From: Escherichia phage FFH2
Sequence record: KJ190158
DNA length: 64,000 bases
Strand: one strand, 5' to 3'
Part shown: piece by piece, positions 3,697-38,035 of the stretch
Layout of the letters: every line of letters begins with the position of its first letter
Position numbering within the stretch: position 1 is the first letter of the stretch
The notes under the pieces: model-generated
What the model was told of the DNA's origin: nothing
Databases searched by the model: none
Seen by the model: only the letters and a program-made list of their open reading frames with translations
Position numbers and translations under genes: made by a program

Positions 3697-4310
3697 TGGA
3701 TATTATTGTTCTTAACGCCCCACCCAGCAGTGGTAAGGATCACATTGCAGATCTCTTGTTGGAAGCTATTCCTAACTCACACCACCGCGAGGTTAAGGAG
3801 ATGCTCTTTAGTGTGGCAATTAAGGCAGCTGGTGTAACTCCTCAACTCTGGAATGCACTTTATGACCGCCACTACAAAGAAGAGCCTTGCCCTTTCTTAA
3901 TGATAGACGGCAAGCATGTTTCTCCGCGAGAATGGATGATCCATTGTAGTGAAAATCTGATTAAACCTATCTTTGGTGAAGATGCTTTCGGTAAAGCCGC
4001 AGTCGCATCTTTGAAGAAAGATTTCCCTAAAGGTAAAGGGGTTGTTGTTTACTCCGATGGTGGATTCAAAGAGGAGCTGGCATGCCTTAGCGAGTACGCA
4101 TACAGCACAGGTGGAGATCTGTTGTTGTTCCGTATTCACCGTGTCGGATATGACTGGGGAAATGATTCCAGAACCTATCTAAGTCTGGAAAAGAACGGAA
4201 TAAAAGGAATTGAGTTTGATGTTGTAAACCCTGAAGGTGCACCTTGGGAATGTGCATCGGAGATTGTGTGCAAGTATATTGATGCTAAAGAGGCCCAAGA
4301 AGAATGTTAA
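3696..4310 (+). CDS. P-loop kinase, putative deoxynucleoside monophosphate kinase
   Basis: N-terminal LNAPPSSGKDHIADL P-loop like T4 dNMP kinase; ATG 3696 after GGAGG. Confidence 0.5.
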   Translation: MDIIVLNAPPSSGKDHIADLLLEAIPNSHHREVKEMLFSVAIKAAGVTPQLWNALYDRHYKEEPCPFLMIDGKHVSPREWMIHCSENLIKPIFGEDAFGKAAVASLKKDFPKGKGVVVYSDGGFKEELACLSEYAYSTGGDLLLFRIHRVGYDWGNDSRTYLSLEKNGIKGIEFDVVNPEGAPWECASEIVCKYIDAKEAQEEC

Positions 4311-28828: not shown

Positions 28829-29037
28829 TCAACACACATGCATCTGAAGAGACATCCGAAGGAGTTACCATCTGTCCCTTGGCTGAGCCAGTGAAAGAGG
28901 AAAACTTCGATTCTGAAGATTATCCATCTCCGTCCCAGGTAGATCCTGAGGCTGATGACCTAACGTGGGAAGACATCGTAGATATCTGGTTCTCTATTAT
29001 GCCTGAGCACGAAGAGTTCAGGGGTGGTAGACTATGA
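28825..29037 (+). CDS. hypothetical acidic protein
   Basis: ORF only. Confidence 0.45.
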   Translation: MINTHASEETSEGVTICPLAEPVKEENFDSEDYPSPSQVDPEADDLTWEDIVDIWFSIMPEHEEFRGGRL

Positions 29038-29156
29038 AGCACCGAGCCCACACAGGTTCCTCATACTAAAGCATGGCCTGAAGAGGCAAACGTGCATAAT
29101 TCCTGCGCATTTGGACGTATAATCCTGTTCACACTCTCATTTCCAGAGGAGATTTT

Positions 29157-29372
29157 ATGAAGATAGAAATATTTGGTGGAGCTGACAACACTCGTGGCCT
29201 GATTTACCTTGAATTTGATGAATCATACCTGCCAGAGGTGTTAAATATAGACTCTGTTGCTGAGGCTTTGGGAGTAAACCCTAAAGAACTCCACTCTTGT
29301 GCTGAGATCGATGGTTGGGAAGAGACCATGAACATTGATTTCAGTGAAGTAGAGGATGAACCGCTGGACTGA
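29157..29372 (+). CDS. hypothetical acidic protein
   Basis: RBS agaggag; last rightward ORF before ORF-free region. Confidence 0.45.
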   Translation: MKIEIFGGADNTRGLIYLEFDESYLPEVLNIDSVAEALGVNPKELHSCAEIDGWEETMNIDFSEVEDEPLD

Positions 29373-29499
29373 CACACAATTAGCTGCCCGGCTAAAGTGC
29401 TGGAAGCACCTATAACACATCTTTCAACTAAATTTCCTACCACCACAATCACTTACCTCCCACACATGACTGTTTGCTTGTTTAGTGAGCAGTCATGCC

Positions 29500-29527
29500 T
29501 TGACATTCTTGCCTATCCTGATAAAAT
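29500..29527 (+). promoter_or_regulatory. sigma70-type promoter TTGACA-N16-TAAAAT with TG extended -10, firing into ORF-free region
   Basis: Consensus -35, extended -10; preceded by 8-bp inverted repeat catgactg..cagtcatg; no ORF downstream. Confidence 0.5.
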
Positions 29528-30841
29528 TAAGTTCTTCTCTTTTCTTTTACCGAGTAATTCGGGTTTTCTGTTCTCTTCGGTTTGAAGGGGTATAGAGATA
29601 CACCTGAGTGAACAGGGTGAACAACCGAACATTTGGCTATGGCATTAGCATGGCGAAGCGGACGGGTGACGAAAGAGGGGCCGGAGGACACCAGTCACTG
29701 CCATATGATATATGGGTGATAACCTGAAGAGTCTGAATAAGTGTTTAAGTACCAGTCAGAGGAAAAGGTGAATGGTAGCCGAAGGGGGAGGGGGGTTTCT
29801 TGTATCTTTAATTTGTATATTATGTATACACTTGTAAACCAATCTCATCTGAATTTGTTTACCACACAAAGTGGATAGGGACAAATATTACCTATTAAAC
29901 TTGAATTATTTATAGAAATACCACAACACCACTTAAGTCTTTGATTTTACACACAAATCCTACAGATATTCACCCTCCATATTTAACATACCTGTAACAT
30001 ATTCCATACCCTACCTGACCGATCAATTCACCCAACTACATCCCCATATTTTCCCTGTCTGTACTACCCCTGCCCCGCCGGGAGTCCCGTCATATCTGGC
30101 TTTCCAGCAAATATCACACCCACAAATATCATTGCCTGAAGAGGGTTTCATCCCATAATACATGCCTTACCTGAAGAGCGCTTCATACACCACGTAAATT
30201 TTTTAATTGACCCCCTCCCCGCCGCCGGAGAGGTTGGCTTTTCCCACACAGACCTGAAGAGTCAGCCAGAAATATCTGAACAGGTCCAGCTATGCCACGA
30301 TTTTGTGCTTGTCCTACAGGAGTGCCTCCCTGTCAGGAGCCGGTAGCGACTGGAGTGCTGCCAGGCGGACGAAATGGGAATCATTCTCATTCTTATAACA
30401 ATTCTCAAATATCGAGGCAGTGAGGCAAATTAATAGGTGAGGCCGTTCACACAATGGCACAACATTTGCAACCTATCTTGTGGGAGTGAATGAGAATACC
30501 TATCATTGTGAGAATAGTTATCATTACGGGCAATTTAACATAATACCCATTATGCGCACCACTGGCGATCCATACAGGGATTGATAACATGGGTTACTGT
30601 TTACACACATAACAATTATATTTCTTACTATTTGTGTGGGATATAGTTAGCAGCCGATAGATTAGATATTGACCTGTAGACTTCCAACCGTCCAGACGTC
30701 TAAACGCCCACACAACAAGGGTTATACATACACAACTGAATGTAAACAGGGCCGCAAAAATGCTACCATACAAGCTTGTAAATTTTTCATGCAGCACTTG
30801 ACAAAGAGGAGGAAAACTTGTCTGACACTTTAGACACAATA

Positions 30842-30888
30842 GTGACATAATATGACATAATGGTGACACTGAACATAATTGACATGCC
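30842..30888. repeat. Tandem 10-bp iterons (G/A)TGACA(T/C)(A/T)AT
   Basis: gtgacataat-atgacataat-ggtgacactg-aacataattgacatgcc. Confidence 0.55.
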
Positions 30889-30992
30889 TGACTGTTTACA
30901 TAGCTAACTATTCATACAGAAATGATAAGCCATGCCATTCGTTTGCATGATAATAATTAACTTGTTTACAATAGATGACATAATATAAAAGC

Positions 30993-31025
30993 AGGGCAAC
31001 TATTAGAAGATCTATAGTTGCCTTG
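30993..31025. repeat. Near-perfect palindrome around GGCAACTAT / ATAGTTGCC
   Basis: agggcaactat-tagaagatc-tatagttgccttg; 9-mer recurs at 31052 and 31159. Confidence 0.55.
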
Positions 31026-31774
31026 CTTGTTATGTCATGATTAACTAAATACAAGGCAACTATGATCTGATTAATAGTTTGCAGACAAACTATCACGGGG
31101 GTGATGGTTACTGCTTTTATATTATGTCGCGACTCCGTCGCGCCATGCCATTCGTTTGCATAGTTGCCTTATTGTTACAGATAAAATAATTGTATTGTTA
31201 ATTATTTCTTATCTTTCTCTTAGTCATCTAATGATTCCAGTCAGTATAGTAATGTACAGTAAACATTAGACGACTAAAGATTTCTCTGTTTATTATAACT
31301 TACCGTGACAATTTCAGGCTGTTTACGAAAAATGTTGACACCTGGGCCGATTTATGTTATGCAGTTTACACGAATAATTATTTTATGCAGGTATTGACTA
31401 TTCCGTTATTCTATGGTTGGAATAAATACTTAGCAGACTATAGAATGGTGAGCGTACGTAAATTCTGAGATCTGGCGGCTATAGTTATACTCGATTTTTC
31501 ACGTAGAACACGCTTTTGTTAGTGTGTAAGTGTATGACTTATAAAGATTTTTAGTTGTTGACAAGATATTGAAGATGTGCATCAGGTTAAATTTTGTGCA
31601 ATAGCGGCATTACGTGCAATTTTGAGAGAGAAAACGGGTAAAAATGGCCTTGCTATCACACAATGAAAAATTATGCAATAGTTATTTTACATGTATGTTT
31701 GTACAGTGTGTGGGATTGATGGCTAGTCAATTATTCCACTTGCCAGGCTGGGCCGTTTGTGGTAGGAGAAATAC

Positions 31775-31806
31775 AGACAAAAAGAAAGGGGCCTTTTAAA
31801 GCCCCT
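31775..31806 (-). terminator. Intrinsic terminator for leftward cluster
   Basis: aggggc..gcccct stem followed on minus strand by ttctttttg. Confidence 0.55.
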
Positions 31807-31824
31807 GATAGTTTAGTTAAGAAA

Positions 31825-32244
31825 TTATAATGATTCGTATATTTCATAGATTCGATTTGCCAGGTCGTTACGGTAGCGGAATTTTTCCTCACGTTTGATC
31901 ATCAGATCTTTAAAGCCATATTCTTTAAGCACTTCATTAACTTTATGGCGGCATACCTTCATATTATCCTGTGCGTCACCAATAAACCTGTTGCTATGGT
32001 GCATGGCTTTAATTTCTTCTTCCAGGACCAGAGCAACTATGCGGACCGGATCAAGCTGATAGGCGGTAACATCCATGCGGCATTGTAAACGACTTTTTAC
32101 GTCTGCCACCGGATATACTGCAACCTCTTCCCCGTCAACATTGACAATAATTAGTTTACCATCGATTTCGAATCCTTTCGCCGCCGGACCGTGACAAAAA
32201 GCGTTATCAAAGCTATATGCCGGATTATTAGATTTAATGTTCAT
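31825..32244 (-). CDS. hypothetical protein
   Basis: ORF with own promoter (32294-32322) and terminator. Confidence 0.55.
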   Translation of the reverse strand: MNIKSNNPAYSFDNAFCHGPAAKGFEIDGKLIIVNVDGEEVAVYPVADVKSRLQCRMDVTAYQLDPVRIVALVLEEEIKAMHHSNRFIGDAQDNMKVCRHKVNEVLKEYGFKDLMIKREEKFRYRNDLANRIYEIYESL

Positions 32245-32293
32245 GGTGTTTTTACCTCTTAGTTAATTTTCTTACAACTTCCCTTCAAAAAAG

Positions 32294-32322
32294 AATATAG
32301 CAAAACTGCCGATCCTTGTCAA
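32294..32322 (-). promoter_or_regulatory. sigma70-type promoter TTGACA-N17-TATATT (minus strand)
   Basis: Reverse complement gives consensus -35 and -10 upstream of gene 31825-32244. Confidence 0.5.
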
Positions 32323-32390
32323 CCAAGGATAGCATAATTTTTATGTGATCAAGGGGCTTTATTGCCCCCCTGATCGTGCAACTTGTTGTA

Positions 32391-32654
32391 TTATTTGTTG
32401 CTCATCCAGTTTTCCCAAGCTGCCTGATAATCTGCCTCACTGCGGCGGATCTCTTCTTGTTCTTCAAGCCGGATCTCTTCTTCCAGGTACCCCAGGATAT
32501 CGGCTTTTTTGGTCTGGCGTAACATCCAATCATCTTTTTTACGAGTAAAGATCTTATAAGCTTTCTCGCAAACCTCTTTTTTGCTACCTTTTTGGACTTC
32601 AAGAACACGATAAGCCATATATTGAACTAGTTTGAGCTGGTCAAGACGTTTCAT
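32391..32654 (-). CDS. hypothetical protein
   Basis: RBS aaagaggaaaac; flanked by GC hairpins. Confidence 0.5.
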   Translation of the reverse strand: MKRLDQLKLVQYMAYRVLEVQKGSKKEVCEKAYKIFTRKKDDWMLRQTKKADILGYLEEEIRLEEQEEIRRSEADYQAAWENWMSNK

Positions 32655-32987: not shown

Positions 32988-33198
32988 AATGTTTTCCTCT
33001 CTTCTGGTTGTTGTGTGGGCACTTTTGCCCCTTCAAGATAAATGTTACCCCACCCCCTGGCAGATGTCAACGGTTTTTATAGTTCTTATATGACAGGCAG
33101 GCCCGGTGATTGTCTCCCCCCGTCGCCAGGTGCCTGCCGTTGAATAAGTATAACAAAAAACAGGACCATTGCAAGCCCTGTTTTCTAGTCAATAAGGA

Positions 33199-37946: not shown

Positions 37947-38035
37947 AATGTTTTCCTCTTTGTTTTGTGTGGGGCAAACGTCTTGCCCCCTTGAGTTTTA
38001 ATATAGCAGGTTTTTAGATTATTGCAACACTTTAT

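Follow-up and report, generated by a model that had tools for sequence, protein, structure and literature searches.

What is the 2.45-kb stretch of the Escherichia phage FFH2 genome (record KJ190158) in which a rightward and a leftward block of genes meet and no gene is apparent? The stretch lies at 29373 to 31824 of the 64-kb sequence analyzed here (the window), which covers part of a ∼137-kb genome; searches with neighboring proteins were limited to the window. A sequence-only reading had described a repeat-dense region free of open reading frames (ORFs) that looked like a replication origin or protein-binding array, and/or one or more noncoding RNAs. It missed that the two physical ends of the virion chromosome adjoin in this region and that the repeat found there holds a dif-type XerCD site. 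The comparisons below suggest that a virulent phage probably borrows the host recombinases XerC and XerD to circularize its DNA.

The stretch matches 120 phage records at ∼88 to 97% nucleotide identity, all of them Vequintavirus (rV5-like Escherichia coli myoviruses of ∼137 kb), and the window phage is thus an rV5-like member of this genus. An alignment of 17 Vequintavirus genomes is the basis of all statements on column identity, motifs, and copy number within the genus. No nucleotide homology to the region as a whole was found outside Vequintavirus, so comparison across genera was made with motifs, the dif core, and an inverted repeat; only ∼30 nucleotides (nt) of the region can be aligned across genera. 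Its rV5 counterpart, 104014 to 106617, separates the rightward ORF163 from the leftward ORF164. In the rV5 genome paper, this stretch is labeled only as noncoding (a grey box), the genome is taken to be circularly permuted, the local change in skew is put down to gene orientation, and the origin is described as not placeable from skew. The region is unannotated in most GenBank relatives. The claim that it lacks genes held up: its largest ORF has 91 codons' worth of protein (91 aa), ORFs are intact in only 1 to 7 of the 17 relatives except in one near-invariant block, the small ORFs match no PHROG family, and a tRNA and tmRNA search found none. When the flanking 71-aa protein was searched against IMG/VR, no more than 3 loci were retrieved, and a regulator resembling rV5 gp153 showed no synteny with chromosome ends in other genera. 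Nineteen unverified records labeled Campylobacter phage (MG0656xx, e.g., L012 and L014) are Vequintaviruses 88 to 95% identical to the region, and their host label is doubtful.

Records of related genomes, deposited by different laboratories, begin and end at the same two points. Gotham, YN3, ECP2303, EdH4, and HdK5 all end at window position 30822, and bov11CS3 and bov25_3 start at 30364. The annotated repeats of Gotham (1 to 459 and 136567 to 137025) are identical to each other and align without gaps to 30364 to 30822 at 94.8% identity. According to a published note, the terminal repeats of Gotham measure 459 bp and packaging begins at a single specific point, the same in all virions (PMC7471380), and Korf et al. 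report 458-bp terminal redundancies in EdH4 and HdK5 (PMC6563267). Therefore, the point of convergence is a pair of physical chromosome ends, and the rightward and leftward gene blocks simply run out toward them. Related genera have the same arrangement. The authors of Mydovirus KPP-1 found a 514-bp direct terminal repeat (DTR) from coverage and PhageTerm (T7 type); it lies just beyond the end of the rightward gene block in a largely noncoding gap with two small annotated ORFs. In Henunavirus Hena1, both contig ends have 519 identical bases in common (a DTR of 519 bp). Within Vequintavirus, the DTR is 90 to 98% conserved, and the sequence immediately outside both of its boundaries is the most variable of the region, with large indels. 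From these sequence comparisons, the region almost certainly comprises the ends of a linear chromosome bounded by short DTRs, and would form the concatemer junction in replicating DNA. The location of the DTR is already known, being present in databases and the two short papers.

As judged from the aligned termini, both chromosome ends have fixed positions, each beside a conserved cut motif (Table 1). The motifs are ..GCCA/GGCGGAC at the left cut and CTTGACA-purine-rich-TTGTC/ at the right cut, where the slash marks the cut. The left motif of the window recurs as ..gcta/GACGGACAG in KPP-1 and as /GACGGACAAC in Hena1, and the right cut falls 24 to 25 nt past the start of TTGACA in all three phages. 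Vequintavirus, Mydovirus, and Henunavirus, the three genera with known ends, thus have both motifs in common. Both are also kept in the 17 genomes, while the sequence directly 5' of the left motif is hypervariable. The conserved cut motifs appear to be new. The DTR contains further short words. Tandem 18-mers beside the dif-like site are annotated as a repeat_region in Navn and pangalan, and akin words of the GAATGAGAAT type occur in the DTRs of other genera, including KPP-1. A GAAATGRGAATCATTC-type word recurs in the DTRs of different genera at varying distances from the dif-type site (window, 30369 to 30390; L010, ∼4254 to 4272; L024 and L025, just past the XerC arm).

The dif-like site itself is a core of two 11-bp arms around a 6-bp center. 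E. coli dif is GGTGCGCATAATGTATATTATGTTAAAT (PMC3025954). The phage core agrees with it at all 22 arm positions, with no mismatch in either arm; only the center differs. It is the sole match in the 64 kb even when 3 mismatches are allowed, with none in shuffled sequences and none expected by chance. A search with the ∼30 nt alignable across genera led to Vibrio phages, in which the matching features carry dif or attB annotations. Both arms are invariant in the 17 Vequintavirus genomes; one alternative center occurs, and variation sets in directly beyond the arms.

The comparison was extended to nine phages (the window phage, KPP-1, A5-4, LTH01, 4MG, CR8, phiTE, ChuuTotoro, and pEa_SNUABM_55), to which IMG/VR contigs were added (candidate PVP-SE1-, CR3-, Hena1-, and Av-05-type). 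The XerD arm, ATTTAACATAA, is exact in all of them, the XerC arm has 0 to 2 mismatches, and the flanks are unalignable. Centers across the lineages are TACCCA, AACACG, TACAAC, TACACG, or TACACC and never the host TATACA. The site is kept in ten lineages, nine of Vequintavirinae and one represented by IMG/VR contig L030, and was present in 26 of the first 29 loci examined. In all three genera with mapped ends it lies within the DTR, which gives each virion DNA a pair of directly repeated sites; two such copies per virion DNA are present in Gotham and Hena1. In the window phage, 170 and 262 bp separate the site from the ends of the DTR. Both among the 17 genomes and across the ten lineages, the arms are constrained while the center and flanks are free. 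The center of a Xer site can vary as long as partner sites match, and an XerD arm held more firmly than the XerC arm, together with a free center, is the signature to be expected of a Xer site in such alignments. On this pattern of conservation, the core is very probably a genuine XerCD-binding site under selection. In the papers available for full-text search, none connects Xer or dif with Vequintavirinae or rV5, and no GenBank annotation of a dif-type site was found among the matches listed. The site and its subfamily-wide conservation appear to be new.

More than 120 viral contigs in IMG/VR (L030 to L149), most of them 4 to 45 kb long, carry ATTTAACATAA-N6-TTATNCGNAC. Their centers include TATACA, which is that of host dif (26 contigs), TGGGTG (26 contigs), and TGGGTA (11 contigs), and the contigs are probably Xer-exploiting elements or prophage ends. 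Centers of the Vequintavirinae type occur in contigs of at least 120 kb, and the Mydovirus-type center occurs in the partial contigs L063 and L104 (83 and 98 kb).

Table 1. Positions of features in and around the terminal region, in window coordinates (a slash within a sequence marks the cut)
Feature	Position	Strand	Description
Sigma-70 promoter	29500-29527	+	TTGACA (29500-29505), 16-nt spacer, TG (29519-29520), TAAAAT (29522-29527); extended -10; score 11/12
Candidate 264-nt noncoding RNA	29534-29797	+	G-rich (G 0.32, C 0.16); based on conservation and fold
AT-rich stretch	29798-29960	none	163 bp, 72% AT; directly 3' of the RNA block
C-rich right-arm segment	29961-30345	+	CCTGAAGAG at 30135, 30170, and 30253; GC-rich modules at 30066-30080 and 30210-30224
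Left-end cut-site motif	30346-30378	none	..GAGTGCTGCCA/GGCGGACGAAATGGG; virion left end 30364
DTR	30364-30822	none	459 bp; single copy, two copies collapsed by assembly
Tandem 18-mers	30491-30525	+	TGAGAATACCTATCATT and TGAGAATAGTTATCATT; 7 nt from XerD arm
dif-like XerCD core	30533-30560	-	XerC arm GGTGCGCATAA (30550-30560), center TGGGTA (30544-30549), XerD arm TTATGTTAAAT (30533-30543)
Right-end cut-site motif	30797-30822	none	CTTGACAAAGAGGAGGAAAACTTGTC/; virion right end 30822
Tandem short-repeat arrays	30823-30975	+	TGACAYWWT units ∼10 to 11 bp apart, then YTRTTYAC (CTGTTTAC) units ∼16 to 17 bp apart
20-mer GCCATGCCATTCGTTTGCAT	30929-30948 (first), 31142-31161 (second)	+	Two copies bracket the inverted-repeat element
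Palindromic element	30977-31128	none	Perfect 18-bp inverted repeat, arms 30977-30994 and 31111-31128; encloses GGCAACTAT hairpins
GC-rich motif GTCGCGACTCCGTCGCGCCA	31126-31161	+	Cross-genus motif, followed by second 20-mer copy
Intrinsic terminator of leftward gene block	31787-31806	-	8-bp stem, then TTCTTTTT
Left end compared			Window ..gcca/GGCGGACGAAA; KPP-1 ..gcta/GACGGACAGC; Hena1 /GACGGACAACC
Right end compared			Window CTTGACAAAGAGGAGGAAAACTTGTC/; KPP-1 CTTGACAAGGAGAGAGAATTGTGTT/; Hena1 CTTGACAGGAAGATAGAAAAGTGTT/

We propose that, after injection, host XerC and XerD would pair the two DTR sites and recombine them, yielding a circle with one DTR and releasing a 459-bp linear stub. The same reaction could shrink circular multimers or cut unit circles out of concatemers, and the resulting circles would feed rolling-circle replication. 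Because the center is TGGGTA and that of the host is TGTATA, exchange between phage sites would be favored and exchange with chromosomal dif, and hence integration there, disfavored. Terminase would recognize the cut motifs with the adjoining arrays, C(C)TGAAGAG in the right arm and TGACAYWWT and CTGTTTAC in the left arm, and, like that of T7, would make two DTRs out of the one at each junction. Close to the left end, the inverted repeat inside it would act as a DNA hairpin or cruciform in end processing or priming, and the promoter at 29500 would direct synthesis of a conserved 264-nt RNA. Exchange could alternatively be initiated by XerC and finished by replication or a phage resolvase, in the manner of CTXphi, in which an XerC-first exchange is completed in this way. 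Growth of P1-type phages requires recombination between terminal repeats. The 64 kb contain a single Chi site, 14 kb away, and none near the ends; since the repeat is only 459 bp and the Chi site is this distant, a site-specific route may be useful.

That the DTR junction carries a functional Xer site is likely. The use of Xer recombination for circularization or monomerization is a serious possibility that falls just short of being favored, and we are somewhat more tentative about the broader proposal that Vequintavirinae as a subfamily hijack host XerCD to close circles or reduce multimers, with neither a phage recombinase nor homologous recombination. Several points weigh against these readings. 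The termini of the window phage are inferred by homology from relatives that are 92 to 97% identical, and XerCD binding and recombination at the site are predicted. Chromosomal dif needs FtsK to activate XerD, and no FtsK-gamma-like protein, XafT-like (DUF3653) protein, or recombinase was found among 24 neighboring small proteins. FtsK-orienting polar sequences (KOPS) show no polarity toward the site (5 permissive versus 4 nonpermissive), and BLAST found no homology to cer or psi accessory sequences beyond the core in plasmids. T7-type DTR phages do without circles, and late recombination at junction sites would destroy packaging substrates.

Some further observations concern the same proteins and motifs. 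An 87-aa ORF at 32391 to 32654 (minus strand) was rejected as a candidate phage Xer activator, as its label of DNA translocase FtsK has no support from Pfam, PDB, or homologues; the label, present in several GenBank records, looks like a copied annotation error. Another 20 small left-end proteins included no FtsK-gamma, DUF3653, or recombinase. The KOPS word GGGNAGGG is found at 29785 to 29792 (plus strand), 30068 to 30075 (minus strand), and 30213 to 30220 (minus strand), that is, in the G5AG6 run that closes the RNA block and in both GC-rich modules, and has no orientation bias across the window.

The terminal region can be classed as a combination of known kinds, T7-type ends and Xer exploitation. 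Like T7 and T3, it has a short exact terminal repeat (160 bp in T7) with fixed ends and arrays of short words on one strand inside and outside the repeat, and KPP-1 is classed as T7 type by PhageTerm. The T7 repeat itself holds 3 copies of CCTAAAG, with 8 more to the right of the left repeat and 2 to the left of the right repeat, including CACCTAAAGAGGG, which resembles TGCCTGAAGAGGG in the window; these arrays were reportedly named SRL and SRR by Dunn and Studier in 1983. The copies before the right repeat of T7 stand 78 to 107 bp from it, and three right-arm CCTGAAGAG copies in the window stand 111 to 229 bp before the DTR. The T7 junction has the promoters phiOR and phiOL, of which phiOR is 549 bp upstream of the right repeat, and the window promoter is also rightward and upstream. 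On the other side, the TGACAYWWT and CTGTTTAC arrays resemble the CCTAAAG array to the right of the left T7 repeat. In T7, a second copy of the repeat has to be made as concatemers are processed, and there is a report of a hairpin form. Unlike T7, which has no dif-like site, the window phage has one; its noncoding arms are ∼1 kb each, its array words differ and are unstable in copy number, it has a large covarying inverted repeat, and its genes converge on the ends rather than running left to right.

Phage P1 offers a precedent for a recombination site in terminally repeated DNA, where two direct copies give a circle: Sternberg and Hoess reportedly found that loxP circularizes injected P1 DNA and that the same site resolves dimers. 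P1 encodes Cre, whereas no phage tyrosine recombinase was found among the window neighbors, the words integrase and recombinase are absent from the rV5 paper, and the site is of the host dif type. The redundancy of P1 is 5 to 10 kb and permuted, with two loxP sites only in some genomes; here, the repeat is 459 bp and exact, and two sites are always present. The core shares with chromosomal dif its 28-bp layout (11+6+11), the firmer XerD arm, and a position at a GC-skew switch and differs in having its own 6-bp center, no KOPS polarity, and a location in the terminal repeat of a virulent phage. As in cer and psi, which convert plasmid multimers to monomers, a dif-like core sits on a nonchromosomal replicon, and plasmid cores match the phage core by BLAST, but there is no plasmid similarity outside the core. 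The center of cer is 8 bp (6 bp here), and cer and psi have ∼180 bp of accessory sequence beside the XerC arm, bound by PepA with ArgR or ArcA; in the DTR, 262 bp flank the XerC arm and could act as such an accessory region. CTXphi, VGJphi, and TLCphi likewise use host XerCD via a dif-like site. Those phages, filamentous or satellite and small, insert at dif and often have degenerate XerD arms, and TLCphi brings its own XerD activator, XafT (PMC9226527). The phages described here are 137-kb virulent myoviruses with a perfect XerD arm, no integrated copies found in complete E. coli genomes, and no XafT/DUF3653 found nearby.

In the right arm (29373 to 30363), the consensus promoter claimed by the sequence-only reading is present as described. 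Its hexamers are invariant in the 17 genomes, and 7 spacer positions and a 2-nt insertion vary. The block downstream of it is 99 to 100% identical in these genomes, above the flanking genes, with conservation that begins at the predicted start and stops at 29797. It is present in 116 Vequintavirus records at 97 to 99.7% identity, and it was not found outside the genus. A pyrimidine-rich 5' segment, CUUCUCUUUUC, pairs with a 3' segment, GAAGGGGGAGG (29781 to 29791), that is followed by a U-run. Folding from 29534 was stronger relative to shuffled sequences on the plus strand (z of −2.09) than on the minus strand (z of −0.40), and 3 of 4 variable paired positions still pair via G-U on the plus strand. 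The block has no codon-position bias. Rfam, which the earlier reading had proposed to search, gave no match at gathering score over the whole window; in 28900 to 32400, there was only a weak suhB/mmgR match (E value of 0.15), which is the terminator hairpin of the leftward gene block. The earlier suggestion of a noncoding RNA is thus plausible for a discrete RNA 3' of the promoter, conserved from its predicted start to a terminator-like helix, and finds no counterpart in Rfam. We regard the block as a candidate genus-specific noncoding RNA; this ultraconserved block appears to be new. One reading of the AT-rich stretch that follows is a DNA-unwinding element.

The C-rich remainder of the right arm holds repeats noted previously. 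Both GC-rich modules were found. All five reported CCTGAAGAG copies exist (29077, 29723, and the three in Table 1), and that at 29077 falls outside the noncoding stretch. The window has 9 copies against 0.67 expected, and the other 4 are in-frame Pro-Glu-Glu codons; with 4 of 9 copies so explained, CCTGAAGAG was rejected as a window-wide signal, and what stands out is the local cluster alone. The right arms of KPP-1 and A5-4 likewise contain C(C)TGAAG(AG)-type and CCTAAAGAG words. Just 5' of the left cut, 30273 to 30345 is an indel hot spot at which relatives have alternative modules of ∼40 to 60 bp with hairpins of their own, e.g., CTAGCTTTCAGCTAG.

The left arm (30823 to 31824) opens with tandem arrays whose copy number, counted by eye on the multigenome alignment, ranges from ∼3 to 8 for TGACAYWWT and from 2 to 12 for YTRTTYAC. 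Column identity in the arrays is 52 to 82%, and TGTTTAC is locally enriched. The TGACATAAT units described earlier as iterons exist as exact copies at 30843, 30853, and 30976, but the family with one mismatch is not enriched across the window, and copy number differs among relatives. A duplicated word is present too, as a 20-mer and not the 19-mer described; A5-4 carries an analogous duplicated word, CCATACTCTGGCAAT. The two 20-mers bracket an inverted repeat whose 18-bp arms, as claimed, are 100% complementary, and all 4 exact window copies of GGCAACTAT lie, in both orientations, within 175 bp (30995 to 31168).

As single-stranded DNA, this palindromic element folds at −41.1 kcal/mol on the plus strand (z of −11.7) and −38.8 kcal/mol on the minus strand (z of −11.3). 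A perfect inverted repeat of 16 to 21 bp is present in 9 of 9 phages (at least 7 lineages), 415 to 610 bp from the dif-like site and with a spacer of 71 to 184 bp, and its arm sequences differ between phages. Thirteen of 16 pairs change on both sides and none on one side only, with no match in 500 shuffles and no G-U among 128 pair cells; the arms were picked as inverted repeats, so the weight of this comparison lies in recurrence, position, and the flanking motif. That motif, GTCGC..CGCGCCA 3' of the inverted repeat, is found in the window phage, KPP-1, A5-4, LTH01, 4MG, and ChuuTotoro, with variants in CR8, phiTE, and Erw55. Because both strands fold equally strongly and G-U pairs are absent, a DNA hairpin or cruciform is favored over an RNA. 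By analogy, the element may serve repeat duplication or priming. The covarying hairpin element appears to be new. In sum, the view of the region as an array of binding sites fared well: it is noncoding, cis-acting, and very likely bound by proteins.

Side observations in and beyond the left arm concern smaller elements. A 139-aa ORF adjoining the arm (31825 to 32244, minus strand) is absent in 5 of 16 relatives (Gotham, FV3, SYGMH1, HMD-6, and an IMG/VR contig) and so behaves as a presence/absence cassette at the chromosome end. A GC hairpin (GGGGCA..TGCCCC), CACACAA, an A-rich run, and a Shine-Dalgarno sequence precede leftward genes (33012 to 33018 and 37966 to 37972, both minus strand). CCACACA occurs 24 times in the window against 9.4 expected, and six copies of CCCACACA lie in or adjoining the terminal region (29047 to 31714).

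How far do other explanations account for these features? A replication origin, the reading first offered for the region, is unlikely in either of two forms. In one, the G-rich transcript from 29500 ends at G5AG6 beside DNA of 72% AT and primes DNA synthesis; in the other, the TGACAYWWT and CTGTTTAC repeats and the inverted repeat form an iteron origin. An origin of either form would be compatible with the preferred explanation. The promoter is strong and conserved, the 264 nt downstream of it are ultraconserved, composition passes from G-rich through AT-rich to C-rich, and the region has arrays of repeats as well as a palindromic element with a stable fold. Promoter, candidate transcript, and AT-rich stretch stand side by side, which is the anatomy of transcription-primed (R-loop) origins such as ColE1 (RNA II), T4 oriF and oriG, and T7 (phi1.1); an RNA-primed origin may lie here. 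However, there is no DnaA-box cluster (one TTWTNCACA in the region, and 7 in the window versus 8.4 expected), the copy number of the supposed iterons varies freely between ∼2 and 12 among close relatives, and other genera that keep the remaining architecture lack the RNA block. Cumulative GC skew has a maximum at the region and not a minimum, a terminus-like sign that is confounded by gene orientation, and the rV5 authors could not site the origin from skew. It is less likely still that regulatory RNA acting in trans, on targets of the host or the phage, is the main content, either the 264-nt RNA or perhaps the inverted-repeat element as a structured RNA. The limits of conservation coincide with the start site and terminator-like helix, folding is strand asymmetric, and the variation fits G-U pairing; against this, no Rfam family matches, there is almost no variation for a covariation test, and the RNA block makes up only ∼11% of the region. 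The inverted-repeat element folds alike on both strands, with 0 G-U in 128 pair cells, and fits DNA better. Decayed coding sequence or a neutral spacer between convergent units, with repeats arising by slippage, would explain why ORFs are mostly broken in relatives and why array copy number varies, but it is scarcely credible given blocks of 95 to 100% identity that surpass the flanking genes and motifs and an inverted repeat that are kept across genera with unalignable flanks.

Two other explanations address the Xer site. XerCD might bind without recombining, to tether ends, to block exonuclease or FtsK, or to be titrated so that dimers of the host chromosome go unresolved and division stalls. 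The perfectly conserved arms fit this, as does the finding that XerCD bound at dif stops FtsK translocation (PMC2800217), and the high copy number of phage DNA would be expected to titrate XerC and XerD. We consider it improbable; a decoy needs neither the DTR position nor the constant 6-bp arm spacing seen in every lineage examined. Far less probable is integration at host dif as a Xer-exploiting element with a hidden lysogenic or carrier state, as filamentous phages do with dif-like sites. The single match in a plasmid database is a complete Vequintavirus, entered as a circular plasmid (137,565 bp) from an isolate of E. coli (CP057073.1, pRHB39-C03_2; L150), but this plasmid is free rather than inserted in the chromosome, and an assembler will in any case circularize a genome that has DTRs. 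Moreover, no copy of the region was found in 5,426 complete E. coli genomes, the center never equals the host center, and a lytic life style is ascribed to these phages, with none of the words integrase, recombinase, and lysogen in the rV5 paper. The plasmid record itself, from a cattle feces isolate, is nonmobilizable and has one DTR copy; a carrier state, contamination, or closure by the assembler could each account for it.

A DTR junction with a Xer site thus remains our preferred explanation, and it fills a blank box labeled noncoding with defined cis-acting elements: the terminal repeat and its two cut sites, the Xer site, the short-repeat arrays, the hairpin element, and the candidate RNA. 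In practice, Vequintavirinae records should start at the conserved GRCGGAC end, and the small ORFs called in the region should be left unannotated. If true, the proposed mechanism would document Xer exploitation in virulent tailed phages for the first time and would parallel P1 Cre/loxP with a host enzyme. Were the dif-type site functional, a large group of virulent coliphages, among them O157 typing phages and candidate therapeutic phages, would depend on XerC and XerD. Such a site would also widen Xer hijacking from small integrating filamentous phages to lytic phages of 135 to 150 kb and would show a route by which a phage can circularize its DNA without a recombinase of its own.

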